DNA of 64,000 nt from IMG/VR virus record IMGVR_UViG_3300029374_000001, positions 96,001-160,000 of that record. One strand, written 5' to 3'. Below, in pieces: positions 1,824 to 61,433 of the stretch. Source of the DNA: a virus. The notes under the pieces are model-generated. The model searched no databases. It saw nothing but the letters and a program-made list of their open reading frames with translations, and was not told the origin of the DNA. The first letter of the stretch is position 1. Each line of letters opens with the position of its first letter. Position numbers and translations under genes: made by a program.

Positions 1824-2114
1824 TTAATAACCATGCTCTTCAGCATTTTTAATAGTCGCCAAAACGGCTGCAATTTTAGAATCTATTTCAGACCTACTAT
1901 ATGTATATGCTTTGATTCCCTTAGACTTTACAGGATTATCTGAGTTATCTGTAGGAGCTTCATCAAATGATAATGCATTCTGTTTTCCATTTAATAGTCC
2001 ATTAACTTCTGTTTTACTATACACTTCAGATAACTTATTTTTTACATATGTTTTAATTAAACGAACTCGTTCTTTCTCGAGTTCCTTACGTACCAAATAA
2101 TATTTTTCGGCCAT
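1824..2114 (-). CDS. hypothetical small protein (fibre-associated?)
   Basis: 96-aa ORF with a strong SD (AAGGAGGAACTATTT-ATG). It is tightly spaced between the giant fibre gene and the LRR gene. Confidence 0.5.
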   Translation of the reverse strand: MAEKYYLVRKELEKERVRLIKTYVKNKLSEVYSKTEVNGLLNGKQNALSFDEAPTDNSDNPVKSKGIKAYTYSRSEIDSKIAAVLATIKNAEEHGY

Positions 2115-2174
2115 AAATAGTTCCTCCTTAAAATTACAACCAATTTTGATTTACTTTGATGTTGAACATCCAAT

Positions 2175-2210
2175 TTATATATCCATCCCTAATATAGGGA
2201 TGGATATATA
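2175..2210 (-). terminator. hairpin terminator downstream of the giant fibre gene
   Basis: Perfect palindrome TATATATCCATCCCTA-ATA-TAGGGATGGATATATA with a 16-bp stem. It lies between the stop of the 2223..8903 gene and the start of the next gene. Confidence 0.5.
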
Positions 2211-2222
2211 ACTATAAATTTA

Positions 2223-9018: not shown

Positions 9019-9750
9019 ATGAAAGGAATATATGGAAATATGAACTCGAATATAGAATCGATTCTAGTAGAAAAAGAATTTCCTAACGTATTCTCATACG
9101 GCGGATTTAATCCTACCTTAGAATCTCCATCCTCTCCATTTTCCATATCATTTGCTCAAACAAAAGAAACTCTACAAGATGTAGATGTATATAGAAACTT
9201 TTTATATTCAGCGATTACCAGAGTAAGAACTTCTAATTTTTATAGACACTATAAAGCTCATCTGATTCAGATGGGTGTTAATCGCTGTCAATTGCATCCT
9301 CATATTACCGTTTCTTCTGATGGAGAAGATGATGTGGCTACTATAGAATTACATCACCATGTTTTGACTATATTTGATATAGCCTTAGTGATTACAGAAC
9401 ACATCTTAAATACATATGGATCTTTATCCAGTTTTGATTTATCAGAATTAATCAAAATGGAACATATGAATCATAATGTTGGTACAGTTATGCTGTGTAA
9501 AACATGCCATCAATTATATCATAACAATGAAAACTTTAAAGTTCCCTCTACATTAGGATTTGGTAAATGGTGGGAATTATTACAGAAATATAAATATGGG
9601 ATCACTAGAGATTTGGCTATTAAGATTTATTACATGTTAAAGAATGATCTTAAGAACGCTGATGATCGAGATCAAAAAATAAAAGAAATGTTAAAGATCA
9701 GAGACCAGATCATAGATTGGTCTTCTTATAATGAAACTTACTTTAATTAA
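9019..9750 (+). CDS. HNH (His-Me finger) endonuclease-like protein
   Basis: 243-aa ORF. It has the motif ELHHHVL...NHNVGTVMLCKTCHQLYH (HH ... N ... LCxxCH..H). It is a paralog of the 34104..34832 product. The start may instead be the downstream ATG at 9037. Confidence 0.5.
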   Translation: MKGIYGNMNSNIESILVEKEFPNVFSYGGFNPTLESPSSPFSISFAQTKETLQDVDVYRNFLYSAITRVRTSNFYRHYKAHLIQMGVNRCQLHPHITVSSDGEDDVATIELHHHVLTIFDIALVITEHILNTYGSLSSFDLSELIKMEHMNHNVGTVMLCKTCHQLYHNNENFKVPSTLGFGKWWELLQKYKYGITRDLAIKIYYMLKNDLKNADDRDQKIKEMLKIRDQIIDWSSYNETYFN

Positions 9751-21399: not shown

Positions 21400-21449
21400 T
21401 ATGAAGTTTAAAAAATAATAAAAAATAAAAGAGAGTCATTAAGACTCTC
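21400..21449 (-). terminator. rho-independent terminator (GAGAGTC-TTAAT-GACTCTC plus T-run on the minus strand)
   Basis: Hairpin at 21431..21449 followed, on the minus strand, by TTTTATTTTTTATTATTTTTT. Confidence 0.6.
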
Positions 21450-21457
21450 AGATATTT

Positions 21458-21610
21458 TTACCACTGAATATCATTGATTGTACACATCACGATAACCAGC
21501 AGCATAAGTGGATATGCATACACATTTTTAATCTGTGTCTTACCATTCTCATCTTCATAGAACGGTTTCCACCATTTCCAAGATTTTCTACGATAATATT
21601 TTTCGTCCAT
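21458..21610 (-). CDS. small membrane protein (50 aa)
   Basis: Not in the ORF track because it is under 61 aa. ATG follows AAAGGAGCGAATTTAAA. It reads MDEKYYRRKSWKWWKPFYEDENGKTQIKNVYAYPLMLLVIVMCTINDIQW, with a C-terminal hydrophobic helix. Confidence 0.45.
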   Translation of the reverse strand: MDEKYYRRKSWKWWKPFYEDENGKTQIKNVYAYPLMLLVIVMCTINDIQW

Positions 21611-21640
21611 TTTAAATTCGCTCCTTTTGAAATAATAAAA

Positions 21641-21826
21641 TTATCCGACTTTCCAATTCTTTCTTAACTTAGTTATTTCTTCTCTTAAAGAAATAGCTTT
21701 AGCTGACATAGGGTGAGCATGAAGCCGATTAATCAGTTTCAAATATTCATCCTCTTTGGAATGAATATAATCTTCCATCTCGGCTTTAACTGATAATACC
21801 GGAACACCTTCTCTAATGACTAACAT
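21641..21826 (-). CDS. small hypothetical protein (61 aa from the refined start)
   Basis: The ORF track gives a start at 21859 with no SD. The ATG at 21826 (MLVIREGVPV...) lies 6 nt after AAGGAGA. It is downstream of conserved promoter P1. Confidence 0.5.
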   Translation of the reverse strand: MLVIREGVPVLSVKAEMEDYIHSKEDEYLKLINRLHAHPMSAKAISLREEITKLRKNWKVG

Positions 21827-21898
21827 TGCCATTCTCCTTCCTGATACTTTCCGTATCATAGAAAATATATAGATTAATATTTACTTTCACTCATATAG

Positions 21899-21928
21899 TA
21901 TATAAGTTAAAATAAATTAGATTACAAA
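21899..21928 (-). promoter_or_regulatory. conserved phage promoter P1 (TTTGTAATCTAA extended -35, 17 bp, TATATA)
   Basis: The minus strand reads aaaTTTGTAATCTAAtttattttaactTATATA. It is one of four copies sharing an identical 12-13-nt upstream element. Confidence 0.6.
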
Positions 21929-22006
21929 TTTAGATTTCGTATAACTAGTTAGTAAGAAATCATGTAGTTTAGCTGCGAATGATTTCTTAGAGATATACTT
22001 ATCGTA

Positions 22007-22186
22007 CTATGATAAGAGTATATCTTGTGCTTTGACAAGATTACTTAACAAGGTAATCTTGAAAGCGAGAATACACTCGTGATTATCTGGCGTATCTTTA
22101 ATCAATTTTAGATTTTCTAAAGCATCTTTCAGATATCCAGAAAACCAAAGAGCATATTCTTTGGAATTAATGTCTTTAGTAATCAT
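22007..22186 (-). CDS. small hypothetical protein (59 aa)
   Basis: Not in the ORF track. ATG follows AAAGGAGAATACGT. It reads MITKDINSKEYALWFSGYLKDALENLKLIKDTPDNHECILAFKITLLSNLVKAQDILLS. It is preceded by a structured 5' UTR and promoter P2. Confidence 0.45.
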   Translation of the reverse strand: MITKDINSKEYALWFSGYLKDALENLKLIKDTPDNHECILAFKITLLSNLVKAQDILLS

Positions 22187-22300
22187 ACGTATTCTCCTTT
22201 CGAGGCTTATAAGATTACACAGCTATAAAATCTTATAAGTCATATATTTGATATGGGAGAGATAGCCGGTAACTATCTCTTCCCTCTATCAAATATATAA

Positions 22301-22330
22301 TATATGATTTAGAAAATCTTAGATTACAAA
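22301..22330 (-). promoter_or_regulatory. conserved phage promoter P2 (TTTTTTGTAATCTAAG, 17 bp, CATATA)
   Basis: The minus strand reads ttttTTGTAATCTAAgattttctaaatCATATA, about 110 nt upstream of the 22186 start. Confidence 0.55.
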
Positions 22331-22345
22331 AAACAAAAGTGTATT

Positions 22346-22369
22346 CCCATAGACCATATGGTCTATGGG
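22346..22369 (-). terminator. hairpin terminator (CCCATAGACCATATGGTCTATGGG)
   Basis: Perfect palindrome 17 nt after the stop of 22386..22907. Confidence 0.55.
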
Positions 22370-22385
22370 AATTATTTGTAAATTA

Positions 22386-23106: not shown

Positions 23107-23242
23107 AGTTATCACCTATCCTATTACTATCTAAGTTCGTTGAGATATAACTTTTAAATTCTCAAAACGACAGCTTACAATGTAGTTATCGAACACTTAT
23201 ATAAATTTTCATATTATTTTCAAATGAAAGGATATGTGCTAT

Positions 23243-27535: not shown

Positions 27536-27573
27536 TACATTCTAATAACCAACTGAAGATAGCGAGTTTCTTA

Positions 27574-27599
27574 GGGTATACGGAATATTCCGTATACCC
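27574..27599 (+). terminator. hairpin after the 1430-aa gene
   Basis: Perfect palindrome GGGTATACGGAATATTCCGTATACCC 39 nt after the stop codon. Confidence 0.5.
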
Positions 27600-27802
27600 A
27601 TTCGCTCGTCAAAAGGCCGCATTTCATTTCTAACATATTAGTAAAGGCTTTTGTATCTCTGATCATACCCGTCCATATATGATTATATACAATTGTCTAA
27701 AATTTCATAAATTTCCTCTTCTTGAAAATTTGTTTTCTCCTTATAATTCACTGTACTTTCTCCGGTACAGTGAATTATACCGCCAATATTACAATAAAAG
27801 AT

Positions 27803-27825
27803 CCCATAGCTCCTATGAGCTATGG
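27803..27825 (-). terminator. hairpin terminator of the small-membrane-protein cluster (CCCATAGCTC-CTAT-GAGCTATGG)
   Basis: A 9-bp stem with a 4-nt loop, directly downstream of the 27833 stop on the minus strand. Confidence 0.5.
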
Positions 27826-27832
27826 AACTTAT

Positions 27833-27991
27833 CTATTTAACAAGTACGATAATTGCTCCTACAATAAATACAGAGCATATTAATCCTGCCATATATTCTG
27901 GCATAACAACACCTAAGATTACATTCATAAATATAGATACCAGAATAACCACTACACATAGTAATATCTTTATGATATTTCCTATTCCCAT
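27833..27991 (-). CDS. small hydrophobic membrane protein (52 aa)
   Basis: It reads MGIGNIIKILLCVVVILVSIFMNVILGVVMPEYMAGLICSVFIVGAIIVLVK. It continues a series of minus-strand small genes. I prefer it over the plus-strand track ORF 27822..28013. Confidence 0.4.
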   Translation of the reverse strand: MGIGNIIKILLCVVVILVSIFMNVILGVVMPEYMAGLICSVFIVGAIIVLVK

Positions 27992-28167
27992 AATTTACCA
28001 CCACACTTCATGATATCATAAAATGCATACAATGAGCTAACTAAGTAAACGACAAATAAACATCCTGCAATTCCATATCTGTCATACGTTAAGCAATATG
28101 CAGAACAACTTCCGCATATGATGGACAATAGAATGCAAAGTATGCTAACCAATATTCTACAATGCAT
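27982..28167 (-). CDS. small Cys-rich membrane protein (61 aa)
   Basis: AGGAGG SD about 9 nt upstream. Hydrophobic core ILVSILCILLSIICGSCSAYCL. Confidence 0.5.
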   Translation of the reverse strand: MHCRILVSILCILLSIICGSCSAYCLTYDRYGIAGCLFVVYLVSSLYAFYDIMKCGGKLWE

Positions 28168-28180
28168 AATTTATAACCTC

Positions 28181-28267
28181 CTAACCTATCCAGTTATAAA
28201 GTATATATAACAATAATCCGAAGATCATACAAGCACAGTATTCATTCGTATATTTATTATTCATCAT
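28181..28267 (-). CDS. possible micro-protein (28 aa, hydrophobic)
   Basis: ATGATG about 9 nt after AAGGAG. It reads MMNNKYTNEYCACMIFGLLLYILYNWIG. Confidence 0.3.
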   Translation of the reverse strand: MMNNKYTNEYCACMIFGLLLYILYNWIG

Positions 28268-28375
28268 AATAAAAATCTCCTTATGATTACATAGAAATAT
28301 TCAGAGCAATATAGTGTTCGGATATTGTCTACAAGAAAATGGACGGGCTATAAGGGTTATAAAAAATAAAAAAAT

Positions 28376-28406
28376 AAAGAGCTTTTAAAAGCTCTTTATT
28401 TTTTTA
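28376..28406. terminator. bidirectional rho-independent terminator
   Basis: AAAGAGCTTTTAAAAGCTCTTT flanked by A-runs upstream and a T-run downstream. Confidence 0.6.
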
Positions 28407-28601
28407 TTAGCGAAACAGATCAATTACAACAAATAGAGATATAATTGCTGCTTTCAAACCAAGAACAATACATGCTGCCCAATCGCCAAGTTTACATAAA
28501 ACATTAATACCCTGTTTATGAGCTTGATCATAGAAATGAACACACCAATCCAGATCAATCAATACGATTGCAATTAATACAAAATACTGCCACCATTTCA
28601 T
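28407..28601 (-). CDS. small two-helix membrane protein, holin-like (64 aa from the refined start)
   Basis: The ORF track gives a start at 28631 with no SD. The ATG at 28601 (MKWWQYFVLIAIVLIDLDW...) lies 7 nt after AAAAGGAGGA. It has two hydrophobic segments and is downstream of promoter P3. Confidence 0.5.
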   Translation of the reverse strand: MKWWQYFVLIAIVLIDLDWCVHFYDQAHKQGINVLCKLGDWAACIVLGLKAAIISLFVVIDLFR

Positions 28602-28670
28602 TTTTAAGTCCTCCTTTTGACTTGTTACCATTAGATGATATGATTTATCATTTCTTATTCATCTCTATAA

Positions 28671-28700
28671 TATATAATTTATCAAAAGTTAGATTACAAA
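28671..28700 (-). promoter_or_regulatory. conserved phage promoter P3 (TTTTGTAATCTAAC, 17 bp, TATATA)
   Basis: The minus strand reads catTTTGTAATCTAActtttgataaatTATATAttatagagatgaa. It is near-identical over about 45 nt to P4. Confidence 0.6.
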
Positions 28701-28724
28701 ATGTCTATAATACCCACCTTTATA

Positions 28725-28835
28725 TTATTTAAAGAGCATATCTTCTAATAAAACACCATTGATAATATCATATGCCATAATAGCCCACATAATAGCTAAG
28801 ATGGCTACAAAGATATAACTCATCTTCTTTTTCAT
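28725..28835 (-). CDS. possible small membrane protein (36 aa)
   Basis: ATG 8 nt after AAGGAG. It reads MKKKMSYIFVAILAIMWAIMAYDIINGVLLEDMLFK. Confidence 0.35.
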   Translation of the reverse strand: MKKKMSYIFVAILAIMWAIMAYDIINGVLLEDMLFK

Positions 28836-28864
28836 TGTATGTACTCCTTTTATGAAATTCTATG

Positions 28865-29734
28865 TTAAAAAGTATTTGTTTCTGTCATGATATTTTCTAT
28901 ATGAATCTTTAGACTATTTGTCGATTCATCATAGGTAAAATAAAATAGATATCCATTTCTGGTAAAGAATTTAAAATTTTCTATATGCGCATGAGCGATA
29001 TGAACGTCATTAAAATCCTTCACATCAGATTCTCTTAATTTAAAATGAGAAAAAAGCTCTCTAATTCTTTCGAAATCTTCCTTAGTTGTAAATCTTTCGA
29101 TAATATGCATCCCAAACCCCTTATATCCAATAGGTTTGAACACCCCATCATCGTCAAATTCGATTCTATACACTTCTCCCGTGTACTTATACGTGGGCAG
29201 CACAGATTTCTCTATTAAATCGTAAAAATGGTGAATTTCGGAATGATCATTACTATGAAGAAGTTCATCTAAAAGATCGGACGTTAATATATCATATGAG
29301 TTTATCACAACTTCATTCATGATATTTTCCAATAAATCGTCAGACTTTACGAAATGAAAATCTTCATCAAAGTTTCCATTTTCTATATTTCTTTCTTTTT
29401 CTATATAAGGCGGAATGGTGTAAAACTCCATTTCATTTTCGGAATCATATAAAATATCCCAAGTTCTATTACTATAAATGGCCGTTATGACTATACTAAA
29501 CTCTTCTTTATATTTCTCATATCCATTCATTAATGTAAAAAAGTCCGGAATGCTATAAGAAAAAAGTACAATATGATCTTCTTTATGATTTTCGGAACGA
29601 AAGATATCTTCTAATTTATTCATAAGATCAAAATATGTAACGCATATATCATATACTTTTCCAAGTCTATTAAGAACTAACTTATTATTTTCAAAAAATT
29701 TCGGTAATACAAAAAGCTCAATCTTAGTCATCAT
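28865..29734 (-). CDS. hypothetical protein (289 aa)
   Basis: ORF with SD AAAGGAGAACTATG. It is the first gene transcribed leftward from the divergent non-coding region. Confidence 0.55.
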   Translation of the reverse strand: MMTKIELFVLPKFFENNKLVLNRLGKVYDICVTYFDLMNKLEDIFRSENHKEDHIVLFSYSIPDFFTLMNGYEKYKEEFSIVITAIYSNRTWDILYDSENEMEFYTIPPYIEKERNIENGNFDEDFHFVKSDDLLENIMNEVVINSYDILTSDLLDELLHSNDHSEIHHFYDLIEKSVLPTYKYTGEVYRIEFDDDGVFKPIGYKGFGMHIIERFTTKEDFERIRELFSHFKLRESDVKDFNDVHIAHAHIENFKFFTRNGYLFYFTYDESTNSLKIHIENIMTETNTF

Positions 29735-29883
29735 AGTTCTCCTTTTATAAAAAACGCAAGATAATCATTCTAAAAAACTTAGAATGATTATTCAAGTGTC
29801 ATCATATCTTCCAAGATTAAAAAAACGCCATATGATTTCTCCATAAATTATAAAGGAGTTTTATATATTTATCATTCGCAATA

Positions 29884-29968
29884 TTCAAAAATTTTCAAAA
29901 AATTCGGAAAGGCGATAATCTTCCTATAATTTTTCGGAACATTTTAAACTTTCAAAAACTTCGAATAC
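29884..29968. repeat. iteron-like direct repeats TTC(A/G)(A/G)AA(A)
   Basis: TTCAAAAA occurs three times, TTCGGAA(A/C) twice and TTCGAATA once, within 85 nt of non-coding DNA. Confidence 0.5.
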
Positions 29969-29985
29969 CTAGCTAACGCCTTTAC

Positions 29986-30016
29986 GAAGTATATGGGGCT
30001 ATCGCCCATATACTTC
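29986..30016. repeat. palindrome GAAGTATATGGG-gctatcg-CCCATATACTTC
   Basis: A 12-bp perfect inverted repeat with a 7-nt spacer in the non-coding region. Confidence 0.6.
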
Positions 30017-30388
30017 TAAAACATATCTCTTATATCTTTTAATTTTATTCTTTATTACAGCGCTCCGCTCCCTCTTCGTAGTTGGATAGCGGAACGCTTA
30101 TATTAAATGGAACTCTATATGCTTTCTTTATAATTTTTATAATAATTTTAAAATTCCAAGTAATTCTTTTAAAACTTGGAATAATTACTACTTCTATTTA
30201 TCTTGGAAAATATATACTAACTTCGTTATTTCTGTTGGAATAAGAATACATTCCTGATTTTTAAATAATTTCTTCAGTTTTTCTTTTTTTTTTAATTTAT
30301 TGGTAAATTTTAAACTATCATTTTAATTTTAAAATTGATACAACATATTTGTAATTTTGAAAATTTTGCTAAAGACTATAATGGCCAT

Positions 30389-30606
30389 AAGACCTCTATA
30401 GGCTCAACGGAATACCACGTACATTAAATACCGAATCACTCGCCTACGGCTAATCACAGATAAAGCTCAGCATCGCGCAATCCGCTTCCCTGCTCCTTGT
30501 CGCTCTGCCATATGGTTTCGTTCCGGACTTCCCCTGAAACATATCCTCGCTGCCTCGCTCGGATACCCGTCCTACACTCAACTACCCTCCGGGGGAGGGG
30601 GTTTTT
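30389..30606 (+). ncRNA. candidate small non-coding RNA spanning the GC-rich, pyrimidine-skewed island
   Basis: A perfect TATAAT lies at 30377..30382. About 215 nt downstream is the hairpin CCCTCC-GGG-GGAGGG followed by TTTTT (30585..30606). The interval is about 52% GC in a roughly 30% GC genome, is strongly C/T-rich on the plus strand, and has no credible ORF or SD. Confidence 0.25.
30585..30606 (+). terminator. GC-rich hairpin plus T5, an intrinsic terminator
   Basis: CCCTCCGGGGGAGGG with a 6-bp G/C stem, followed by GGTTTTT. Confidence 0.55.
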
Positions 30607-30694
30607 AGGGGGAGGGGGGAAATTTTTTAAAATTAAAATATAACTAAACATATTTTAAGTCGATTTTTGATAATTTTTGAAAAATATACGCAAA

Positions 30695-30724
30695 TTGACA
30701 TCTGAGTATAGACTCAGATGTGAT
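30695..30724 (+). promoter_or_regulatory. promoter (TTGACA, 18 bp, TGTGAT) with an overlapping operator-like palindrome
   Basis: Consensus TTGACA at 30695..30700. The palindrome CATCTGAGT-ATAG-ACTCAGATG at 30699..30720 occupies the spacer. It lies 30 nt upstream of the AAAAGGAGG SD of the kinase-like gene. Confidence 0.45.
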
Positions 30725-30755
30725 TTCTATTGTTAAAAGGAGGAATTGATAGTAT

Positions 30756-31526
30756 ATGAAAAGCTTGTTGATAGGATTTGAGGGATTAGATGCCAGCTAT
30801 AAACATACTAATGCGGAAGCATTGTATGATCATTTAACAGATGTATATGATAAAGCCATTCGAGCAGATCATTTAAAAATAGAATTGGTTTCTTTTCCAA
30901 GATATAAACATGCCTCCTCTTGGTTTGTCAGAGAATATTTAAATGGTCATTACAATCGTTTTATGATGGATTATGATCAGGTTATATTTCCCAGGCAGTC
31001 TAAGTTGAAACAAGTATCTATGTTTTTCTTGGCAGATATGATTGACTGGTATAGTGATGCATTAAGACGAGGGTTATTTATTAAGAATCATATTATTATC
31101 TTTGATCGCTATATATATTCTATGATGTATTACTTAATTCCAGAGATCTATGCTAAGAAAGAACATCATTATCAAAACTACTTCGAACGATACTTACATA
31201 CCATCAGAGAGAATCCAATGTATGAAGTATTGCCTAAGGTAGATATCTTACTAAAGATGATTACTTCTCCTGATGCTATAGAAAAAGGAATTAATAAAAG
31301 AGGAAGAACCAAAGATAGATATGAAAAGAACCTACAGTATCTGAAAGACGTCAATACATTCTTCAATGGATTAGATTTAAAAGAAGATCTGAATAATACC
31401 AACTATAAAGGATTGAAACACCAATTCGAAATCGATACGGTAGATAAAGATCCAGAAACTATATTTAACGATATATTAAAGAAGATCAATCCAATAGTCA
31501 ATCGATTTGATAAACGAAAGTGGTGA
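30756..31526 (+). CDS. thymidylate/dNMP kinase-like protein with a non-canonical P-loop
   Basis: 256-aa ORF. It carries TMK-family landmarks: LIGFEGLDASYKHT at the P-loop position, but reading GxxxSYKH instead of GxxGxGK[ST]. It also has FFLADM (a LFxADR-like motif with R changed to M), a retained DRY motif (IIIFDRYIYSMMYY) and a C-terminal lid region. The SD is strong. Confidence 0.6.
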   Translation: MKSLLIGFEGLDASYKHTNAEALYDHLTDVYDKAIRADHLKIELVSFPRYKHASSWFVREYLNGHYNRFMMDYDQVIFPRQSKLKQVSMFFLADMIDWYSDALRRGLFIKNHIIIFDRYIYSMMYYLIPEIYAKKEHHYQNYFERYLHTIRENPMYEVLPKVDILLKMITSPDAIEKGINKRGRTKDRYEKNLQYLKDVNTFFNGLDLKEDLNNTNYKGLKHQFEIDTVDKDPETIFNDILKKINPIVNRFDKRKW

Positions 31527-31532
31527 TAAAAT

Positions 31533-32021
31533 ATGGAAGAACAAGATAGACCTTGTATAGGATTAATATTTGATGCAAGTTTTTTAATATGGGATGTATT
31601 AATTCCTATGGGAATTATTTATACGATATTAAACAGAAATCGGAATGCTAAGTTTGTATATGGTGGATTACCAAGACTCTGTATGCATGTAGAAGATTAT
31701 GCACAAAGTTTAAATATTCCAAAAGATCGATTGATTAAATTAGAGATGGATACATGTGTTAAGAGACATCTGCTTACTCAAACAAAAGAAGCAGAATGGT
31801 TTTCCCAATTATTGGCTTATCATCCTGGAAGAATATATTGCTTTAGAGATAATACACATTCTAATGCAACAGGTGTAATGGTTATGCATGCTGTACGTCA
31901 GAATATTCCTGTTATAGAGATAGACAATCATGGTAATAAGAGACAAATAACTAAAAATGCTCCCAGCGATCTTAATATTATTTATGCTCGTAAAGCAGGA
32001 AGGATTCCATACGATGTTTAA
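31533..32021 (+). CDS. hypothetical Rossmann-like protein (possible SLOG/DprA-like or nucleoside deoxyribosyltransferase-like fold)
   Basis: 162-aa ORF between the kinase-like and ThyX genes. The C-terminal segment NATGVMVMHAVRQNIPVIEID resembles the terminal strand-helix-strand of DprA/LOG-type Rossmann domains. I consider this assignment weak. Confidence 0.45.
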   Translation: MEEQDRPCIGLIFDASFLIWDVLIPMGIIYTILNRNRNAKFVYGGLPRLCMHVEDYAQSLNIPKDRLIKLEMDTCVKRHLLTQTKEAEWFSQLLAYHPGRIYCFRDNTHSNATGVMVMHAVRQNIPVIEIDNHGNKRQITKNAPSDLNIIYARKAGRIPYDV

Positions 32022-33321
32022 TCCAATGAAATTAAAAGAAGTTTTTCATAAGAAACCATCTGATCAAGATATAATCAATGCTGTTCATGCTGATGAATCA
32101 AATATGTTCTTTGAAGTATTGAGTATTTCTGATTCTGCTTACTTATGCTCTACTGGAGCTAAGACGTGTTATAATTTAGAGACAGCTAAAGAATATACAA
32201 AGAACTTAGAACATATTGCCAGAATTATGGGATATGGTCATGACTCTATATCTGCTCATTCCAATATGATCATTAAATTGAATATAGAAGCAGATGATAG
32301 AGAGCATATGAATTTGTTACCCATTTTATTTGCATTACCAGCTATGAAGTATATGAATATTGCTATTCTTCCATATAAGGAAGATTTACCAGGAACTAGA
32401 CACAGTATTCAATTATTGATTTCTGGATCTGTTAGAGCATTCAGATACTTCATACAAAAATTCAATGACACCTATATAGAAAATAATGGGTATAATACCG
32501 ATCTCTATGAGGTCATGAAGCAATGTATTTATCAGTCTTTTGAAAAAGAATTCTTTGTTGATTTCATTAAGGCTGGACTATTAGATGAGAAGCAGTTTGT
32601 TTATAAAGCACAAATGAAATTGATTGTGTCTGAAGATGAACATGGAGATGAAGTGGCCGATGTAGGAACAGAAGCAGTTCATCAACCTGTATTGTCTACG
32701 AATATGGTAGATATATTGTATAGAGATAATATCTATGATCTATATTCTCATCTTTTATCTAATGGAGCAGATCCAGATAGATTATTAGACTGCTTATTAG
32801 AAACTTGTATCGTTACTTTAAGACTAAAGAATTATTCTAGAGCTATATCTCAGCAGATTAATAGACATCAGTCTGGTATATCTCAAGAATCTCAGAGATA
32901 TGTAAACTATAGTGAATCTCAGTTTATTGATCCTTTGCATTTTCATGATAATATAGAAGATCAGAATAAAGAATATTCTATCGATTTTATGGGGTCTACA
33001 TTTAAAGGAACCATGAAAGAATTGGGACAATCTTTGATTGCTATTTATCCACAGTTGAAAGAACAGGGATTACAGAATCAGGATGCTCGTGCTATTCTGC
33101 CTATGAATTCTGAGACTAAAACAATCCATACATTTACCTATAAGAATTTACTCCATTTTATTAAGTTAAGAGACTCTCAATTTGCTCAGCAAGAAGTTAG
33201 ACAAATAGCTAGAGATATAAAGTTACTCTTATTTAGTAAGGATGAATATCTTTCTATGGAATCTACAGAAGTTAGAGACTTCTTAAATTCTAAGATGTTA
33301 GAGTTGACTAATCATAAATAA
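32014..33321 (+). CDS. thyX: flavin-dependent thymidylate synthase ThyX family protein, 435 aa with a roughly 170-aa insertion
   Basis: Start at 32014 (AGGAAGGATTCCATACG-ATG), overlapping the upstream stop. N-terminal GAKTCY...IMGYGHDSISAHS matches the ThyX start (R.CY...HGHESVLEH). The hallmark motif SRAISQQINRHQSGISQESQRYVNYS matches SRAxxHELVRHRIASYSQESQRY. C-terminal ARAILPMNSETKTIHTFTYKNLLHFIKLRDSQFAQQEVRQIA matches the ThyX C-terminus (LP...T...N.R.L.HF..LR....AQWEIR). Confidence 0.75.
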   Translation: MFNPMKLKEVFHKKPSDQDIINAVHADESNMFFEVLSISDSAYLCSTGAKTCYNLETAKEYTKNLEHIARIMGYGHDSISAHSNMIIKLNIEADDREHMNLLPILFALPAMKYMNIAILPYKEDLPGTRHSIQLLISGSVRAFRYFIQKFNDTYIENNGYNTDLYEVMKQCIYQSFEKEFFVDFIKAGLLDEKQFVYKAQMKLIVSEDEHGDEVADVGTEAVHQPVLSTNMVDILYRDNIYDLYSHLLSNGADPDRLLDCLLETCIVTLRLKNYSRAISQQINRHQSGISQESQRYVNYSESQFIDPLHFHDNIEDQNKEYSIDFMGSTFKGTMKELGQSLIAIYPQLKEQGLQNQDARAILPMNSETKTIHTFTYKNLLHFIKLRDSQFAQQEVRQIARDIKLLLFSKDEYLSMESTEVRDFLNSKMLELTNHK

Positions 33322-34044: not shown

Positions 34045-34070
34045 CAGACTGTAGCATATGCTACAGTCTG
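34045..34070 (+). terminator. hairpin (CAGACTGTAGCATATGCTACAGTCTG)
   Basis: Perfect palindrome. A second, smaller hairpin AATCCTATATTTCAGGATT lies about 20 nt upstream, at about 34003..34025. Confidence 0.45.
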
Positions 34071-34103
34071 CTATTTCATCGAAACATCATATTACAAAGG
34101 AAG

Positions 34104-34832
34104 GTGAATAGTATGGCTCAAAACCCAGATTATAACAAGCCTACAAATAATCCTAAAGTAGAAGAGATAGATATTACATCTATTCCTGAATTTGATATAA
34201 AAGATTGGGATTTAGATAATCCCAAAGCTTATTTGCGCTTTATTACAAGAATTGAACGTATTTGTAGAAATTCGTTTGAATACAAGCAGTTCATTAATTT
34301 CTTAAGAGATAATGCTGGATTCAATAAATGCAGTATTATGGAAAATGTATCAAATGAAGAAAATAGAGCAATCAAAATTCATGTTCATCATTATCCGCTA
34401 ACATTATATGATATTGTATGGACTATTGCAAATAAACATAAGATGAATCACGAATCTATGGATGAAGATATGATTGCTAAAGAAGTCATGTATAATCATT
34501 ATACTCTTCATGTGGGGTTGATTCCATTATCTGAATCTGTTCATGAGATGAATCATAATAGCAGAATCTTTATTCCTACATGGGCTGTTTTAGGAAAATG
34601 GAGAACATTTGTAGAAGAATATAAACAATATATGTCATCCGATACTCTATCTAACTTAGAGAAGTTAGATGAGCTGAGCCAAAAATATAATCATGCAGAC
34701 AATACCGAGATACTGGATTCTGGATATGTTCGTCTCAAGATTGACGATCCAGATTATCAAGCAACTACAAAAGAACTTTATGATCATATTAACAAAACTT
34801 TAGATGAAATTAAATCTAAACAAAAACAATGA
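34104..34832 (+). CDS. paralog of the 9019..9750 HNH-like protein, with the Cys ligands lost
   Basis: 242-aa ORF. It aligns along its length with the 9019 product (FITRIERICRNSF / AITRVRTSNF; IKIHVHHYPLTLYDIVWTI / IELHHHVLTIFDIALVI; VLGKWRTFVEEYKQY / GFGKWWELLQKYKYG). The HH dyad is retained, but LCKTCHQLYH is replaced by LSESVHEMNH. Confidence 0.5.
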   Translation: MNSMAQNPDYNKPTNNPKVEEIDITSIPEFDIKDWDLDNPKAYLRFITRIERICRNSFEYKQFINFLRDNAGFNKCSIMENVSNEENRAIKIHVHHYPLTLYDIVWTIANKHKMNHESMDEDMIAKEVMYNHYTLHVGLIPLSESVHEMNHNSRIFIPTWAVLGKWRTFVEEYKQYMSSDTLSNLEKLDELSQKYNHADNTEILDSGYVRLKIDDPDYQATTKELYDHINKTLDEIKSKQKQ

Positions 34833-35229: not shown

Positions 35230-35346
35230 ATGAGTTTCAGTACCGAATGGGTAATTAGATATCTAGTATCTGTATGTATAGCATGTGTGTTATTTGCTAT
35301 TCCATTTATGATTGAAGTATTGGTTTTACGATATTTCTTTCGATAA
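35230..35346 (+). CDS. small membrane protein (38 aa) preceding the tape-measure-like gene
   Basis: ATG follows AAAAGGAGAAGTATT. It reads MSFSTEWVIRYLVSVCIACVLFAIPFMIEVLVLRYFFR. This is the refined start within the track ORF 35083..35346. Confidence 0.4.
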   Translation: MSFSTEWVIRYLVSVCIACVLFAIPFMIEVLVLRYFFR

Positions 35347-35443
35347 AATAAAGAGTATAATCTCTTTTATTTTTTGTCTAAAACTCTATACTTACAAGCC
35401 AGAACATACCATTAAACGTTCATATATGAAAGGAGGAATCATT

Positions 35444-38400
35444 TTGCCAAAATTACCTATAGTAAAAAATTACTTAAAGAATGTAGCTAAATCTGTTAAG
35501 TATGTTGCCATTAATGAAGTACGAGAAGCATTTCCAATGCCATTTAGTATGGCAGAAGCAAATGCTGATCTGACTCATGAAGCCAGAGCTATGTTCAGAA
35601 ATAAAGGCAATATCAAAAGAGTACAAAACCAATTCTTACAGAGTGATGTATTTAAAGCTGGTAATGAAATTTACAGAAACAGCATGAGCTCTATTAAGAC
35701 TGGTAAGTTCTATGATAAAGCCAGATCTGATAAAGCAGATAATGCATTCTTTAAGAAAATGATGGGTGGAGAAGATTTTGATTTTGATCTGAGTGAAGAT
35801 ATCAACGATGTTGATACCGAATCTCAAGATGATAGTCAGGCTTCTCTGGACAGTTTAGGTGATGATTTAGATAATCTTGGATTAGGAATTGATTCCAGCT
35901 TAAAGACAACTGCATCTGCTATTTCTGCTACTGTTATGGATAGTGCTAAGTATACTTCCGAAACAGTGAAGAATACAGCAGCTATTTCTTATATGCAGTC
36001 TTTAAGAACGATGAAAGTATTAGAAGCGGGATTTTCTTCCGTCAGTGCCGGAATGAAAAATATCATTAAATTTCAGAATGAACGCTTAAATACCCATATC
36101 CAGAATGCAACCAAATTCTTTGATACTTCTACCAATCTTTTAACAGAGCAGAATGCTATGATGAAAGAAATGCTGGAGATGCAAAGAAATCTCTATAACT
36201 CAACCAGAAATGGAAATATTAATAGAAGAGAATCTCATAATGCATATAATGATATTATGGGATTTGGTGGTGCTTTTGATGCCAAAAAATATCTAAAGAA
36301 TATCAAATCTAATATAATTAATTCTGCCGAGTTCTCTCCTTTCCAAATGTTATGGGATATGAAAGATCTATTGATGGCAAATCCATTAGAGTTCGTTGTA
36401 TCTGGTACCCTAATTAATTTAATGGGTGGAGATAAGGTTAAGAGACAATTAGGCAAACTTCAAAAGACTATGAGTGGTCTATTTGGCCATTTCTTAAACC
36501 AGATGGACAAATGGTCTAATGAAGGTGGTATTAAAGGTTTCCTAGGTTCTATATTAGGGATTAATCAATCTGAGAAAGCCAGAGTTGACACAGCAAATTT
36601 TGAACGTGGAGCTATGCAATTTAATGGCATTGCTCAGAAAGCGATCACTGATGTAATTCCAGGATATTTAGCTAGAATCGAATCTGCTTTAACCGGTCAA
36701 GAAGAACGTTTCTATGATATGAAGACTGGTCGGTGGACAAATGTAACCGGAATACACAAACAGTTTAGTTCCAGATATCATTCATCTGATAATGCTGGTA
36801 TGGATGAGATTACCAATGTATTTAAGAAAGTATTGAGCAATACAGATCTTAAGAATATCAATGGTAATTCTTATTCTCAGGAAGAAGTTTCTAAAATTGT
36901 TAATGTAGTCTTAAATGGTATATTGAAAAATAATGGTTCATATAAAGATTTTGATAATGCCAAAGATTTCTTTAAACAGTTTGGATATACAACAGGAAAC
37001 TCTAAGAGAGATAATAACCTGGAAGATTTTGTTAGAGCGATTGCTATTAACTTAAATCATTCTACCCGAGCTGGATTGGTTCATGATATCCGATCCGCTA
37101 AAGGTGCTAAGAATAACTTAGCCAATGATATATCTAATGATCCATATGATTTGATGAGAAAACTCATGGATAATGGATTAGGTGGATGGAAATATGCAGA
37201 TCGAGCTGTTGATGATTTATCTTATGGGTACACAGATTCATATGAAGAACGTATGTATAGTGGTGGAACTGGTGGTAGAGGGCGTCGTAATAAGAGAAAA
37301 GCACAAAAGCTGTCTCCTGGACCTTCATTAACTACTAAATATGTAGCTCCGACTTCTGTAAAGAAAAACGACTTCAATGTGTTTGCTACGTTTGATATAG
37401 ATGATATCAATGCATTCCCAGAAGGCAGAGATCTAATCAAATATATAACAGACCTGGATCATGTAAGTTCTATTAGCGGTATGAATAAATCTGTAATTAA
37501 TTTTATTAATAAGATTACAGAATTTGGCATATCTAGCTATCCTAATAACTCTTTTGAAGAGCTGATTTATTATGTATTGAATGGTGGAGACGAAAGCTTT
37601 AAAGCTATAAGAAAAGCGGCTACATCATTTTATGCTTTACCTATTCCGGTCAGAGTATTCTTAGAAGAGTTATATTATAAGATTCATCCAAAAGATAAGA
37701 TTACCTCCAGTGAAATGGCAGCCAAAGAAGCTGCTAAGGATGATGATTATGAAAATAATAGTAAGACTTTAGGCGATTACAAAGGTAATGGTTTCTTAGA
37801 TAAACTGAAACGTGCAAAAGGCTTTGATAAGTTTGGTGTTATCAAAGCATATACACAAGACCTAGCCAAAACCCCAATGCATGCCATGGCTGGTATTATC
37901 GCTAAAGTAGACAGTTTAATTTATACAGCATTCTTTGGGGATAAGAGAGTCAAAGATGCTAATGGAAAAGAAATCACTGGATTCATTCAACGTATTGGTT
38001 ACGAAATCGGTACTACCTTTACTAAAGCTAGAGATTGGTTGAAAGAGAAATTATTTGGAGAAGGCTTTGGACGTAAGTTTAGAGAAGGAGCCACACAATT
38101 TGGTCAAAGAATGTTTTCTGGAATTAAGAGTTCTTTAGGATCATTCTATAATGAAGTTGTAGGTTCTGAAAATGCGGCCGATGATGTGATCAGCAATCAG
38201 GACGCTTCCAAAATCAATCTTCCTGGGAAAGCAAAAGGTATGGGATATGTTCCTCATACTGGATTATATATGCTTTCTAGAGGTGAAGCTGTTGTACCAT
38301 CTAAAGATAATCCAGATAATCCATTTAGAGGCTCTGCTTCTATAGCCAGAGATATGGCTAATGAAAAAGCTGTTGGAGCCAGCATGGGCATTAATGTTGT

Positions 38401-41400
38401 TCATGGATATGGTAAAGGAACTGGAAAACGTAAATTAGCTAAAGCTAAAAAGTTATCTAGCGCTGATACAGAAATTCATGCTACCAATGTAGTTGTTTCT
38501 GCAGATGGAGAAGGATCTTCTGAAGAAAATAAGAGTATATATAGTAAAGCTTGGGAATCTTTAAAGAAACAATATCCTGCTGCTCTTGGTGAAGGTACAG
38601 CAACAGCTTTAGTGGGTGGATTAATTGGTGGTCCGTTTGGATTATTGATTGGTGCCGGACTAGGTGCTGCTAATAATATACTGAAAAGTAATGAAGCAGC
38701 TAGCGAATTGTTATTTGGAGATACCAAGAAACTTAGTATATATGGTAGAATAGGAGGAGGGCTAACTAAACTTCTTCCTAAATCTATGCTTGCTAAAATA
38801 GAAAAAACTAAGAAAACGGCTACTGATATAAAGAACTTTGGTATTGGTGGTGGTGTACTTGGATTGGCTTCTGCTGCTCTTGGTGGACCGGTAGGTTTAC
38901 TTGGCGGTATGATGATTGGTGGAGCTGTAGGTTGGCTTCGTAACAATGCAGAATACCAAAATAAAATGTTTGGCAGAACCATATTCTCTAAAGATAAGTT
39001 TAATTTATCTAAATGGCTGAAAGAACATCCTAAACTTAAGAAAATGGGTATAGGTGGTGTAGTAGGCGGATTTATTGGTGGACCATTTGGTATACTTGGT
39101 GGTATGGCTGCTGGTGCTGCTATAGACTACGTTTCTAATTCCACCAAATTCCAAGACTTCTTATTTGGACCTCGTAAAAAAGACGTTAATGGTAGAGATA
39201 CCAATGAACGCGATTTCGAATCTGGGTTCTTAGGTAAGTCTTTGAATAAGATGATTGCTCCTATAAGAAATTTTGGAGATAAATTTGCAGATTATGTTAG
39301 AGAAGGTTTTGTAGAACCTATGCAAAGAGCTATAGTTCCTGTGGGTAAAGCGATGCAAGTAGGAACTAAAAATACATATAAACTAGTAGAAAGAATAATG
39401 AGTACCATATTTAGTCCTAAGTTAAAATTACCATTCTGGAAAAACTTTGGTAGATGGATGGAGACTAATAAGAAATCTAAATTACTAACGGGTATGCTTG
39501 GTGGTGGTGCTGCCGGATATATGACTGGTGGTCCATTGGGAGCTATTCTCGGTGGTGTATTAGGAGCCGGAGCTCATTATACTGGCGTAGATAAATGGAT
39601 GGTTAAAGCAGGAGCGTGGTTAGGAAAACGTCCTGGCTGGTTATTGGATAAAGGAACTAATCGTCTAAATAAATGGCTGATTAATAGTGGCAATGCAGAT
39701 CATATGACCGCTAAAGAGCGTATTAATTTTATGGATACTCATGGGTATTCATATACAGGTTCTAAAGGTCAAGCCATGCAATCTAATGATCGTCTTATGA
39801 TGGATTCTTCTTTAGCTGAAATTAAAGTCATGAAAGATTATGTAGACTTAATTCAAATGGTTAAGTCTGGTAAGAAAATGACTAAAGAAAAAGTTGCTGC
39901 TAAAGTTATTAAGATGATCAAAGATTCTCCATTAGATGATCCAAGTCAAAGAGAAATTGTTGATTTAATTAGAGGCATTCAGGAAAATTCTACAGATAAG
40001 GCAGCAATATCCGCTTCAGTATCCAGTATTATTGGAATTATTAATGAATCTGATATTCCTGATCATAAGAAACAAGATCTGATTTCTAAAGTGCAAGATG
40101 TCGTTCCTTTGGTTGCTCAAATTGGAGCAGTATCTGAAGAAGCTAAGAAAAGAATATCTAATATTAAAGGAATAAAATATACAACTAAGAAAGGTAAGAC
40201 TGGATATTTTAATTTAGACGCATATGAAGGTGATCTTAGTAAAGCATCTTCTTACCTGGAAAAAGAAGCTAAAGCTAAAATAGAAGCCGGAGATACCAAA
40301 GAAAATGATCCAGAAGTTATGCTTTTAGATGAGTCTAAGATTCAGAATCAATTGACTAGAGAATCTAATGATCTTTTAAGAGTTATTGCCCAATTAACTG
40401 CTGGAGAAAAAGTCGATCTGAATGGTATTGGTAAATATAGTAGTTTCGGTTTAGCTACAAGCGCATCTGCATCTGGTGTAGAAAGCGGAACTAAAGTTAG
40501 ATCTGATTTAGATGCTATTGGGCGTATGCAAACTGTTATTGACTTTAATAGAAAATTCAATACAGTCTTTGATGCTACAAATGATGATGTTTATAAAAAG
40601 CATTTCTCTAATAAAAATAATTTAGAGTTTGTTATGAATTATAGTGGCCATATATCACCACGTATGGCTAACTATATTCGTATGCTTCCTTCTAAAATTA
40701 CTAAAGAAGAATTTGAAAGACTTGTATACATAGACAACCATACATCTATTTCAGAACAAAGTATGGATATGGTGGCCGCTGTTCTTCGTCTTAAAGATAG
40801 TGAATGGAAGAATAGAATTAAACCATTGGCTAAACATGGATTCCCATTAACTGGAAGCTTACAGCAGATCATAGATATGGATAAAGAAGATTATGATCAT
40901 ATGCTGAAAGAATTTACGGTTGCTCATAAAGCTATAGAATCCACTGAACTTGGTAAAACGGTTACTCAAGAAGATTGGGTTAAGAATCATAAAGATATCA
41001 ATCGTTTTAATACTGGGCAGCATAGTCGAATTACATTATTCAATGATCAAAATTCTACTACAAAAACTGGATTGAGTGGAGCTGCAGCAGGTATGTTCTT
41101 AGATCCTACTGGCGTTTCTGCTGTAGCGGCCGCTGCTATGTATGCGCTACAGAAAATTATACCTAGTATGGATTTCTTCCAGACTCACAATGCTGGAGAT
41201 CATGCGCAAGAATTAGCAGAAACCATTAAGGGTAAAGCCAGAGGTGGATATATTTCTAAATCTGGTTTATATATGCTATCTAAAGGTGAAGCTGTCCGAG
41301 GCTTTGCTGGTGGAACATCTACTGGTAAAGTCATTGAAATGGTTGATGGTCATCCTAAAGAATTTAAATATACATCTGAAGGCAGCTTAGAAGAAACCAA

Positions 41401-44293: not shown

Positions 44294-44308
44294 TATACTA
44301 TAATATGC

Positions 44309-44338
44309 TTGGGAAGCTCAAATATTTGAGCTTCCCAA
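44309..44338 (+). terminator. rho-independent terminator after the tape-measure-like gene
   Basis: TTGGGAAGCTCAAATATTTGAGCTTCCCAA followed by CATTATATTAATTTTTT. Confidence 0.6.
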
Positions 44339-44380
44339 CATTATATTAATTTTTTACTGAGAGAAAAGAAAGGAGTAATC

Positions 44381-46522: not shown

Positions 46523-46537
46523 ATTAAACAAAACATA

Positions 46538-46567
46538 ATCTTGAAGAGCATTAATGCTCTTCAAGAT
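46538..46567 (+). terminator. hairpin terminator (ATCTTGAAGAGCATTAATGCTCTTCAAGAT)
   Basis: A 13-bp stem 16 nt after the stop codon. Confidence 0.55.
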
Positions 46568-46590
46568 TTATAGTATCAGGTGGTAGATAT

Positions 46591-61299: not shown

Positions 61300-61433
61300 T
61301 TGTTCTCCTCCTTTGAGAAACAGTGTTAAAACAATTTTAATGATACGATTATCATTACGATATTGTTTTAACTAAAATAATATTTGAAACGCATAAAGCG
61401 TCTCATACCTATAATATATAATTTAATATAGAT

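Follow-up and report, generated by a model that had tools for sequence, protein, structure and literature searches.

A conserved non-coding module with a predicted hairpin and G-quadruplex end in an uncultured clade of jumbo phages

INTRODUCTION

At CSB II, one of the conserved sequence blocks of mitochondrial DNA (mtDNA), an RNA or hybrid G-quadruplex (G4) terminates transcription and anchors the priming R-loop, and the human form of the block reads G5AG7 to G6AG8 followed by T-tracts (PMC3488243, PMC4176368, PMC5027508). The herpesvirus element pac1, a T-rich element flanked by G-runs, is also G4-forming (PMC13595911, PMC13386867). Here we describe a 1021-nucleotide (nt) interval at positions 29735–30755 of a 64,000-nt stretch of virus DNA (IMG/VR record IMGVR_UViG_3300029374_000001, positions 96,001 to 160,000; the whole stretch is referred to as the window). 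Judging by its sequence, the interval is a conserved non-coding control region of an uncultured jumbo-phage clade with AR9/PBS1-like RNA polymerases (RNAPs). It carries direct repeats, AT-rich DNA, a promoter motif and a hairpin fused to a cluster of four G-runs.

Besides CSB II and pac1, iteron origins (lambda ori, SPP1 oriL, iteron plasmids) and transcription-primed origins (ColE1, T4 oriF/oriG, T7 primary origin) served as the comparison set. To our knowledge, the G4 cluster has no counterpart in the lambda, SPP1, iteron-plasmid, ColE1, T4 or T7 origins. The late promoters of phage AR9, which belong to its non-virion RNAP, have the consensus 5′-AACA-N6-T-A/G(+1) (PMC7598289).

RESULTS

The interval was found to contain a G-run element, CCCTCCGGGGGAGGGGGTTTTTAGGGGGAGGGGGG (30585–30619, plus strand), in which the 3′ arm of a hairpin runs into four G-runs. 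The hairpin, CCCTCC-GGG-GGAGGG (30585–30599), is followed by GGTTTTT and resembles an intrinsic terminator, and the G4-forming cluster G5AG5-T5A-G5AG6 (30591–30619, plus strand) conforms to the canonical G4 motif. A preliminary description of this DNA had pointed out a G4-capable hairpin with four G-runs of at least five bases and a terminator at 30606, and both were recovered, the latter as the hairpin followed by T5. Four of the seven G/C runs of at least 5 bases in the window fall in this element, within 29 nt. When a cluster was defined as at least four G-runs of at least 4 bases with loops of at most 9 nt, the four-run pattern occurred once in the 64-kb window and in none of 200 shuffles of it.

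It was concluded that the window comes from an uncultured ∼260-kb jumbo phage of 33% GC with AR9/PBS1-like multisubunit RNAPs, since near-identical contigs of 259–261 kb (lineage A) were present in IMG/VR and ENA. Searches with the flanking proteins led to lineage B (dNK-like protein 72% and 289-aa protein 58% identical) and lineage C (∼40% identical). A larger clade was obtained with the long ThyX protein, from which lineages D (L119, 52%), G (L128, 46%) and H (L129–133, 40%) were examined, together with three lineages that do not have the element (L120/121, L122/123 and L125–127). When alignments of the dNK-like and ThyX proteins were scanned against collections of metagenomes, viruses and genomes, they added only lineage-A or lineage-B contigs, or nothing. 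The gene order RNAP-beta, intergenic region, dNK-like gene, ∼160-aa gene and long ThyX was kept in all lineages.

Six lineages (A, B, C, D, G and H) each carried the G4 cluster exactly once per locus, and its place was invariably the intergenic region that separates the RNAP-beta gene from the dNK-like/ThyX operon. The clade that bears the cluster reaches down to 40% ThyX identity, with genomes of 25–33% GC. In all six, a C-rich arm just upstream can pair with the first G-run or runs: CCCTCC with GGAGGG in lineage A, CTCCTTCC with GGAAGGGG in C, CCTTACCC with GGGTAAGG in D, GAATCCCC with GGGGATTC in G, and CTTTCCCTC with GGAGGGAAAG in H. The arm sequences vary among the lineages, and the pairing is maintained. 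Folding with G4 terms predicted that the quadruplex dominates in every one of the six (−51.6 versus −14.2 kcal/mol for the window sequence), and that G4 and hairpin are mutually exclusive in A and B. Among near-identical lineage-A genomes the G5AG5 cores were invariant, and the adjoining T, G and A homopolymers showed five length combinations in eight contigs. At the level of sequence comparison, these results demonstrated a conserved cis-module with a unique hairpin–G4 end.

An exact 16-mer, TTTTAGGGGGAGGGGG, is common to A, B and C. As a family marker it was rejected, for it was found at 93 IMG/VR loci, all of which except the lineage-A contigs belonged to unrelated phages; by our own estimate about 46 were expected by chance. 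An unrelated phage family of ∼42% GC shares the 17-mer TTTTAGGGGGAGGGGGG (L024, L028, L029, L031, L036 and ∼30 further IMG/VR loci; for example L084 2522–2537). In these phages it lies ∼25 nt upstream of a minus-strand gene start, with the complementary CCCCCCTC ∼35 nt downstream, and its resemblance to the jumbo-phage element may be due to chance.

The conservation of the interval was assessed between lineages A and B, with the third codon positions of both flanking genes, which are 58% identical, as the baseline. The island core (30475–30575) was 82–90% identical, and this comparison (0.82–0.90 versus 0.58) indicates that it is under purifying selection. Identity was 78–80% in the promoter zone (30315–30394), ∼70% in the iteron zone (30175–30274), ∼0.7 in the AT-rich spacer after the G-cluster (30620–30697) and 95% at the hairpin ahead of the dNK-like gene (30695–30734). 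The left half (29875–30054) was only 25–50% identical, and the stretch of TTC(A/G)(A/G)AA (TTCRRAA) repeats in it (0.32–0.42) fell under the 0.58 level of third codon positions. By this measure the left-half features, namely the TTCRRAA repeats and a 12-bp palindrome, are therefore lineage-specific. The right half is taken to be the functional core of the interval.

A motif matching the AR9 late-promoter consensus, AACA-N6-T-A(+1), was found at 30342–30353 on the plus strand, with a predicted start at ∼30353. In the window, AACA-N6-T-R was ∼3-fold denser in intergenic than in coding DNA, and it was found just upstream of many genes, including RNAP-beta and the genes starting at 34104, 44381, 46591 and 51716. 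Judged by this distribution, it behaves like a true promoter class of this phage. The RNAP-beta protein here is only ∼30% identical to the PBS1/AR9-type proteins. The 14-mer AACATATTTGTAAT that contains the motif is identical in A and B, and its lineage-C counterpart is AACATAAATTTAAT. The motif lies 130–165 nt before the G-cluster in lineage D, and ∼180–210 nt before it in the inverted lineage G, where both are on the minus strand. Taken together, AACA-N6-TR was present 130–263 nt upstream of the cluster on the same strand in five of the six lineages (A, B, C, D and G). A TATAAT noted earlier at 30377 was also there (30377–30382, plus strand, within ACTATAAT) as an alternative −10-like element; ACTATAAT-like elements occur upstream of other genes, and lineage B keeps this one only partly (TATATA).

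Other copies of the AR9 consensus were located at 23192, 27632, 34083, 44337, 46532 and 51682 (plus strand) and at 61367, 20834 and 2163 (minus strand), usually as AACAT. AR9 reads the AACA motif on a deoxyuridine (dU) template, yet a ThyX homologue is encoded here, and the presence of ThyX argues against plain dU-DNA.

Transcription from the promoter motif would pass through the GC-rich island. The preliminary description had put this island (30426–30620) at ∼52% GC with a strong C/T bias. The pyrimidine skew was confirmed (C:G = 58:26 and C+T = 62% over 30426–30584), and the GC content was corrected to 56%; no other stretch of the window is as rich in GC (0.61 per 120 nt). The predicted product is a non-coding transcript of ∼250 nt (30353–30606, plus strand), C-rich and G-poor, of which 30475–30575 is the conserved core. 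A protein-coding gene in the island was rejected. Substitutions between A and B were spread over codon positions 1, 2 and 3 with no third-position bias, indels shift the frame, and the open frames on the plus strand are due to base composition. No open reading frame (ORF) of the island is common to the lineages, and a 65-aa minus-strand ORF is broken in lineage B.

The small structured RNA suggested in the preliminary description was borne out as to its conserved promoter and terminator-like end, but the RNA was not detectably structured and matched no Rfam family. Rfam searches of the 64 kb gave no match at the gathering threshold, and at E ≤10 the stretch 29700–30800 gave nothing beyond chance-level matches (E ≥0.7); ARAGORN found no tRNA or tmRNA. 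Single-sequence folding of the island, on both strands and in three lineages, gave z-scores of +0.37, −0.03, −0.33 and −1.62 relative to shuffles and hence no evidence of a compact structured RNA. RNAalifold on A and B found one compensatory pair (G-C to A-U), with too few alignable lineages.

These data bear on an explanation in which the island encodes a stand-alone, ∼250-nt, C-rich and largely unstructured non-coding RNA that would have its role in trans: it might base-pair with purine-rich or Shine-Dalgarno-like sequences, for instance, or titrate a protein, the hairpin/G4 serving merely as its terminator and 3′-end protection. In its favour, the island is GC-rich in an AT-rich genome and lies between a promoter motif and a terminator-like hairpin that has a U-run, the core is well conserved between A and B with no ORF, the unit occurs in either orientation, and one base pair is compensated. 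Nevertheless, no alignment of the island body was possible between A/B on one side and C, D, G or H on the other, and the part that is conserved is the 3′ G-cluster, which is the opposite of usual small RNAs. Because the 3′ cluster is conserved and the body is not, the module, on this comparison, is unlike a typical small RNA gene. In addition to the missing fold and family, the island's complementarity to other parts of the window did not go beyond chance-level 10–13-mers (best 12–13 nt, E ≥0.2), and such an RNA would leave the iterons and the repeat expansion of lineage H unexplained. We consider the trans-acting RNA rather unlikely.

As a rho-independent terminator, 30585–30606 has a 6-bp GC stem, a 3-nt loop and a T5 tail, and the same holds for lineage B. 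It differs from such terminators in that the tail is embedded in further conserved G-runs and in that lineage D has no immediate U-run. With one such element per ∼64 kb, it is therefore not the general terminator of the genome.

The strand of the cluster is that of the dNK-like gene in lineages A–D and the opposite one in G and H. In lineage G the whole unit is inverted and the cluster faces the leftward gene; in lineage H, ∼800 nt of non-coding repeats separate the unit from the gene that comes next, which is convergent. This arrangement is relevant to the suggestion that the hairpin and G-cluster form a cis-acting leader or insulating terminator, which would attenuate or block transcription into the dNK-like/ThyX operon or, in the inverted lineages, into the leftward gene, possibly with the choice between hairpin and G4 as a switch. 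The position of the cluster between the promoter and a same-strand dNK-like gene in A, B, C and D, its orientation in G, and the mutual exclusion of G4 and hairpin in A and B are consistent with such a role, as is the ability of the C-rich segment CTTCCCCTGAAA to pair with TTTTAGGGGGAG. In lineage H, however, there is nothing to lead into, and because that unit is directed at non-coding repeats instead of a gene, a simple 5′ leader of the dNK operon is excluded as far as the gene arrangements tell. Moreover, the hairpin and U-run would be transcribed ahead of G-runs 3 and 4, which makes a co-transcriptional switch hard to time, and no ligand-binding fold was evident.

The dNK-like gene also appears to have a promoter-like motif and a 5′ hairpin of its own. 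Beyond the cluster, an AT-rich spacer (30620–30697) extends to the promoter/5′ untranslated region of this gene, where a hairpin with a 10-bp stem, ACATCTGAGT-ATAG-ACTCAGATGT (30698–30721, plus strand), lies ∼20 nt before the ribosome-binding site (RBS). The hairpin is conserved in lineage C and overlaps a promoter-like motif that reads GACA-N6-TA here and AACA in lineage C; an AACA motif is also present at the equivalent site of L124. On balance, a leader or insulator role was judged improbable.

Both divergent genes have a conserved perfect hairpin 15–27 nt upstream of the RBS (30698–30721 and 29761–29791). The overlap of the right-hand hairpin with GACA/AACA would place the predicted transcription start within the hairpin loop, and comparable pairs of hairpin and AACA motif were observed at about 34050–34095, 44300–44350 and 46532–46575.

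Assembled contigs were found to end repeatedly at the element. About nine independent assemblies, from lineages A, B, C and H, break inside the 30–40-nt cluster; the 253,886-nt scaffold_12 of ERZ28568301 ends between G-runs 2 and 3, and contigs L003, L004 and L099 start inside it. The preliminary description had raised the possibility of a packaging site or physical genome end, and the many ends in the cluster agree with this. In such a scheme the G-runs/T-run/G-runs would be recognised or cleaved by a terminase as at herpesvirus pac1, forming a pac site or a terminal-repeat boundary. G5AG5-T5A-G5AG6 fits the description of pac1, with a T-rich core between G4-capable G-runs; herpesviruses and tailed phages have related packaging machinery in common; and the upstream promoter is of the late type, matching the timing of packaging. 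It is the contig ends that support the pac1 reading.

The same contigs also provided evidence against it. The ends scatter over 7–10 nt, and the left and right contigs of one sample join seamlessly through an 11-nt overlap, GTGGGGGTTTT. About 12 contigs span the cluster, and ∼260-kb contigs of lineage A carry the site internally at differing coordinates (about 147 kb and about 75 kb). This makes a non-redundant end of the cos type unlikely; a cos site, taken as a unique non-redundant end, was rejected on the grounds that complete-length contigs have the site internal and 12 span it. In contrast to pac1, no pac2 partner, terminal repeat or fixed cleavage position was evident at the phage site, and no terminase gene was found in the window. 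Breaks were also observed in the AT tract (30174 and 30293, the latter being the end of L007) and inside a 30-nt palindrome. Homopolymer-length polymorphism and the loss of G4 fragments in PCR or sequencing may be the alternative causes, and we infer that the breaks have a mainly technical cause, namely a G4 or hairpin of great stability together with heterogeneous homopolymers. A packaging or genome-end signal, of which a pac-type end with terminal redundancy would be one form still compatible with these data, was regarded as very unlikely.

Upstream of the promoter motif, a second conserved feature was found. The iteron zone (30158–30307, plus strand) contains TTGGAATA-type direct repeats at 30176–30242, with TTGGAAWA boxes at 30176, 30203 and 30235 and an inverted TTCCAA at about 30155–30160. 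Three same-strand TTGGAAWA copies in 67 nt compare with 14 on both strands of the 64-kb window, and conservation of the repeats, which have the core GGAATA in common, extends over four lineages (A, B, C and D). A TTGGTAAA box at 30300 lies 42 nt before the AACA promoter motif, and one TTGGWAW box stands 40–42 nt before this motif in A, B and C alike. Lineage D has four CTTGGAATAATA boxes, three of them within ∼40-nt repeat units, and one ATTGGAATAAC box. In lineage H, a 1.84-kb region devoid of genes holds four GGAATACGA boxes, numerous GTTTATAA boxes and tandem repeats of ∼93 nt.

In L131 of lineage H this region spans 1837–3680, with the ∼93-nt tandem repeats at about 1990–2230, at least eight GTTTATAA boxes in both orientations and a G5/C5/G5 segment at 3181–3218. 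A palindrome of ∼30 nt lies at about 3091–3120, and Logan contig L130 begins inside the corresponding perfect copy.

The AT-only tract described at 30255–30380 with over 90% A+T proved to be an AT-rich tract of somewhat lower content, 85.7% over 30255–30380 and 88.4% over 30255–30340, including a T10 run. At least three direct repeats beside an AT-rich tract, as in iteron origins, were thus present, and both were kept in B, C and D. The replication origin put forward in the preliminary description therefore gained support in its architecture, but through the TTGGAATA-type boxes at 30176–30242, which had been overlooked, and not through the TTCRRAA repeats that it had named.

Those repeats are a real local cluster on the plus strand (29884, 29894, 29903, 29933 and 29951; five same-strand copies in 74 nt versus 77 on both strands of 64 kb), and like the TTGGAAWA cluster they are strongly enriched locally. 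They were present in lineage A only and, given their low A–B identity, are not conserved iterons. The remaining elements of the left half were all found within a few bases of where they had been reported. The 12-bp palindrome GAAGTATATGGG/CCCATATACTTC (29986–29997 and 30005–30016, plus strand) was not conserved; lineage B has in its place a different GC hairpin with a T-run, GGGCGGTTCCCGCCC. The imperfect palindrome AGCGCTCCGCT..AGCGGAACGCT (30059–30098), with an A–B identity of ∼0.6, holds the box GTAGTTGG(A)TAGCG, which is conserved in A, B and C. The first hairpin, reported at 29763–29795, has perfect 13-nt arms (29761–29773 and 29779–29791) and lies on the minus strand ∼27 nt upstream of the start codon of the 289-aa gene, followed by a T-run and an RBS. 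Lineage B retains this hairpin, each arm having gained an insertion that matches the other (ATAAATCATTCTAA/TTAGAATGATTTAT).

The interval is flanked by divergent genes, as had been claimed. On its left is the 289-aa gene (28865–29734, minus strand), whose function could not be assigned by family: no Pfam or PHROG match was obtained, and its AF2 model, with a pLDDT of 41, was unusable. On its right is the dNK/thymidylate-kinase-like gene (30756–31526, plus strand), the first of an operon that continues with a 162-aa gene and ThyX with a ∼280-aa N-terminal extension. The long ThyX (31957–33321) has more than 100 metagenomic homologues of 430–470 aa, on contigs of up to 286 kb; in a tblastn search of 50,697 phage records, no cultured relative covered more than 48% of the protein. 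The 1021-nt interval had no blastn match in the same 50,697 records, and the synteny of the locus is not shared by PBS1. The interval had been called the only long gene-free one. It is indeed the largest non-coding gap, but 27536–28864 (1.3 kb) and 21440–22385 (0.95 kb) are also without ORFs of at least 100 aa. These two gene-poor intervals contain ORFs of at most 74 aa, and small genes of 37–116 aa were called at the lineage-B counterpart of 27536–28864.

The window has a GC content of 32.8% and encodes a 1433-aa RNAP-beta-like protein (phrog_3148), whose best cultured matches, at ∼30% identity, are from PBS1/AR9-type Bacillus phages and from Staphylococcus and Listeria jumbo phages. A 2993-aa tape-measure/lysin giant, RNase H, RusA and virion proteins are also encoded. 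The only GC-rich stretches of the window other than the island are segments of 47–57% GC with positive GC skew at 38808–44090, inside the ORF 35312–44293 of the 2993-aa protein (tape-measure/lysozyme/M23-peptidase). Two PHROG 12252 paralogues without an assigned function were noted 25 kb apart (9019–9750 and 34104–34832). In the nucleotide-metabolism region of lineage G, a YafQ-toxin-like gene (PF15738) was found at L128 7926–8207.

DISCUSSION

The right half of the interval was compared with the known systems. As at CSB II, a promoter lies about 100–260 nt upstream of a G-run that is interrupted by one A (G5AG5/6 in the phage, G5AG7 to G6AG8 in mtDNA), the G-run is on the non-template strand and followed by a T-tract, its homopolymer length is variable, and it is located in the main non-coding control region. 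The phage element differs in having two tandem G5AG5 units and a C-rich arm that forms a canonical hairpin. Its polymerase would be a multisubunit RNAP and not a T7-like enzyme, and iterons are present in the phage. The resemblance is one of form only and implies no homology. The likeness to iteron and transcription-primed origins consists in 3–5 direct repeats that adjoin AT-rich DNA and a promoter within the largest intergenic region.

The CSB II-like form together with the iterons makes a transcription-primed origin the leading reading. By this analogy, a non-coding transcription unit that stops at a hairpin/G4 beside iterons and AT-rich DNA would be an origin like that at mitochondrial CSB II, which we put forward tentatively, as possible but still short of an even chance. 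Transcription from the phage promoter would enter the hairpin and U-run and then the G-cluster, which, being on the non-template strand, would also be present in the RNA. The transcript might be stopped at the hairpin/G-cluster, and its 3′ end might be anchored by an RNA G4 or an RNA:DNA hybrid G4 (R-loop). Such anchoring would occur at a fixed site with AT-rich flanks, beside iterons that would be bound by a phage protein, and its outcome could be a primer or an opening for DNA replication, as at CSB II, ColE1 and T4 oriF-type origins. From these features we infer an active promoter, an RNA that has its end at the cluster, a G4 or R-loop arising in vivo, and replication that begins at this locus.

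Several observations weigh against a transcription-primed origin. Neither DnaA boxes in 29735–30755 nor a recognisable initiator, primase or polymerase gene adjacent to the interval was found, in which the phage differs from the origins compared above. The cumulative GC-skew minimum falls at the locus, but GC skew tracks gene orientation throughout the window, which explains the minimum. The AACA motif is of the AR9 ‘late’ type, and a primer for an origin ought to appear earlier in infection. Any RNA:DNA hybrid formed by the pyrimidine-rich body of the RNA would be weak. In lineage H, the iterons are positioned differently relative to the G-cluster from those in A–D, and a search upstream of the cluster gave no AACA promoter, strict or relaxed. 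Finally, the module is absent from the related lineages L120/121, L122/123 and L125–127.

In more general terms, the module probably starts DNA replication or marks DNA for another genome-level process. The narrower proposal that the hairpin and G4 cluster act as a transcription-coupled genome-level signal, either an R-loop/G4-anchored priming site that has converged on CSB II or a pac1-like DNA-processing site, remains doubtful.

G4-based cis-elements are already known; a deeply conserved, hairpin-fused and assembly-breaking one in a phage control region represents a novel form of them. Functional G4s are well documented in mitochondria and eukaryotic viruses and hardly in phages, and a full-text literature search for ‘G-quadruplex’ together with ‘jumbo phage’ returned nothing relevant. 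If our interpretation is true, this would be the first bacteriophage G4 cis-element backed by deep conservation, as far as this limited search went. The four-run cluster survives in genomes of 25–33% GC whose proteins have diverged to ∼40% identity, and provides a well-defined stretch of ∼35 nt in which mutations can be used to test what a G4 does in a phage. Short-read assemblies of these phages are systematically interrupted at the element, and the pieces of fragmented ‘genomes’ from the clade can hence be joined there. For jumbo phages with their own RNAPs, origins and other genome-level cis-elements are essentially unmapped, and the module provides a candidate origin for a clade that has no cultured member.

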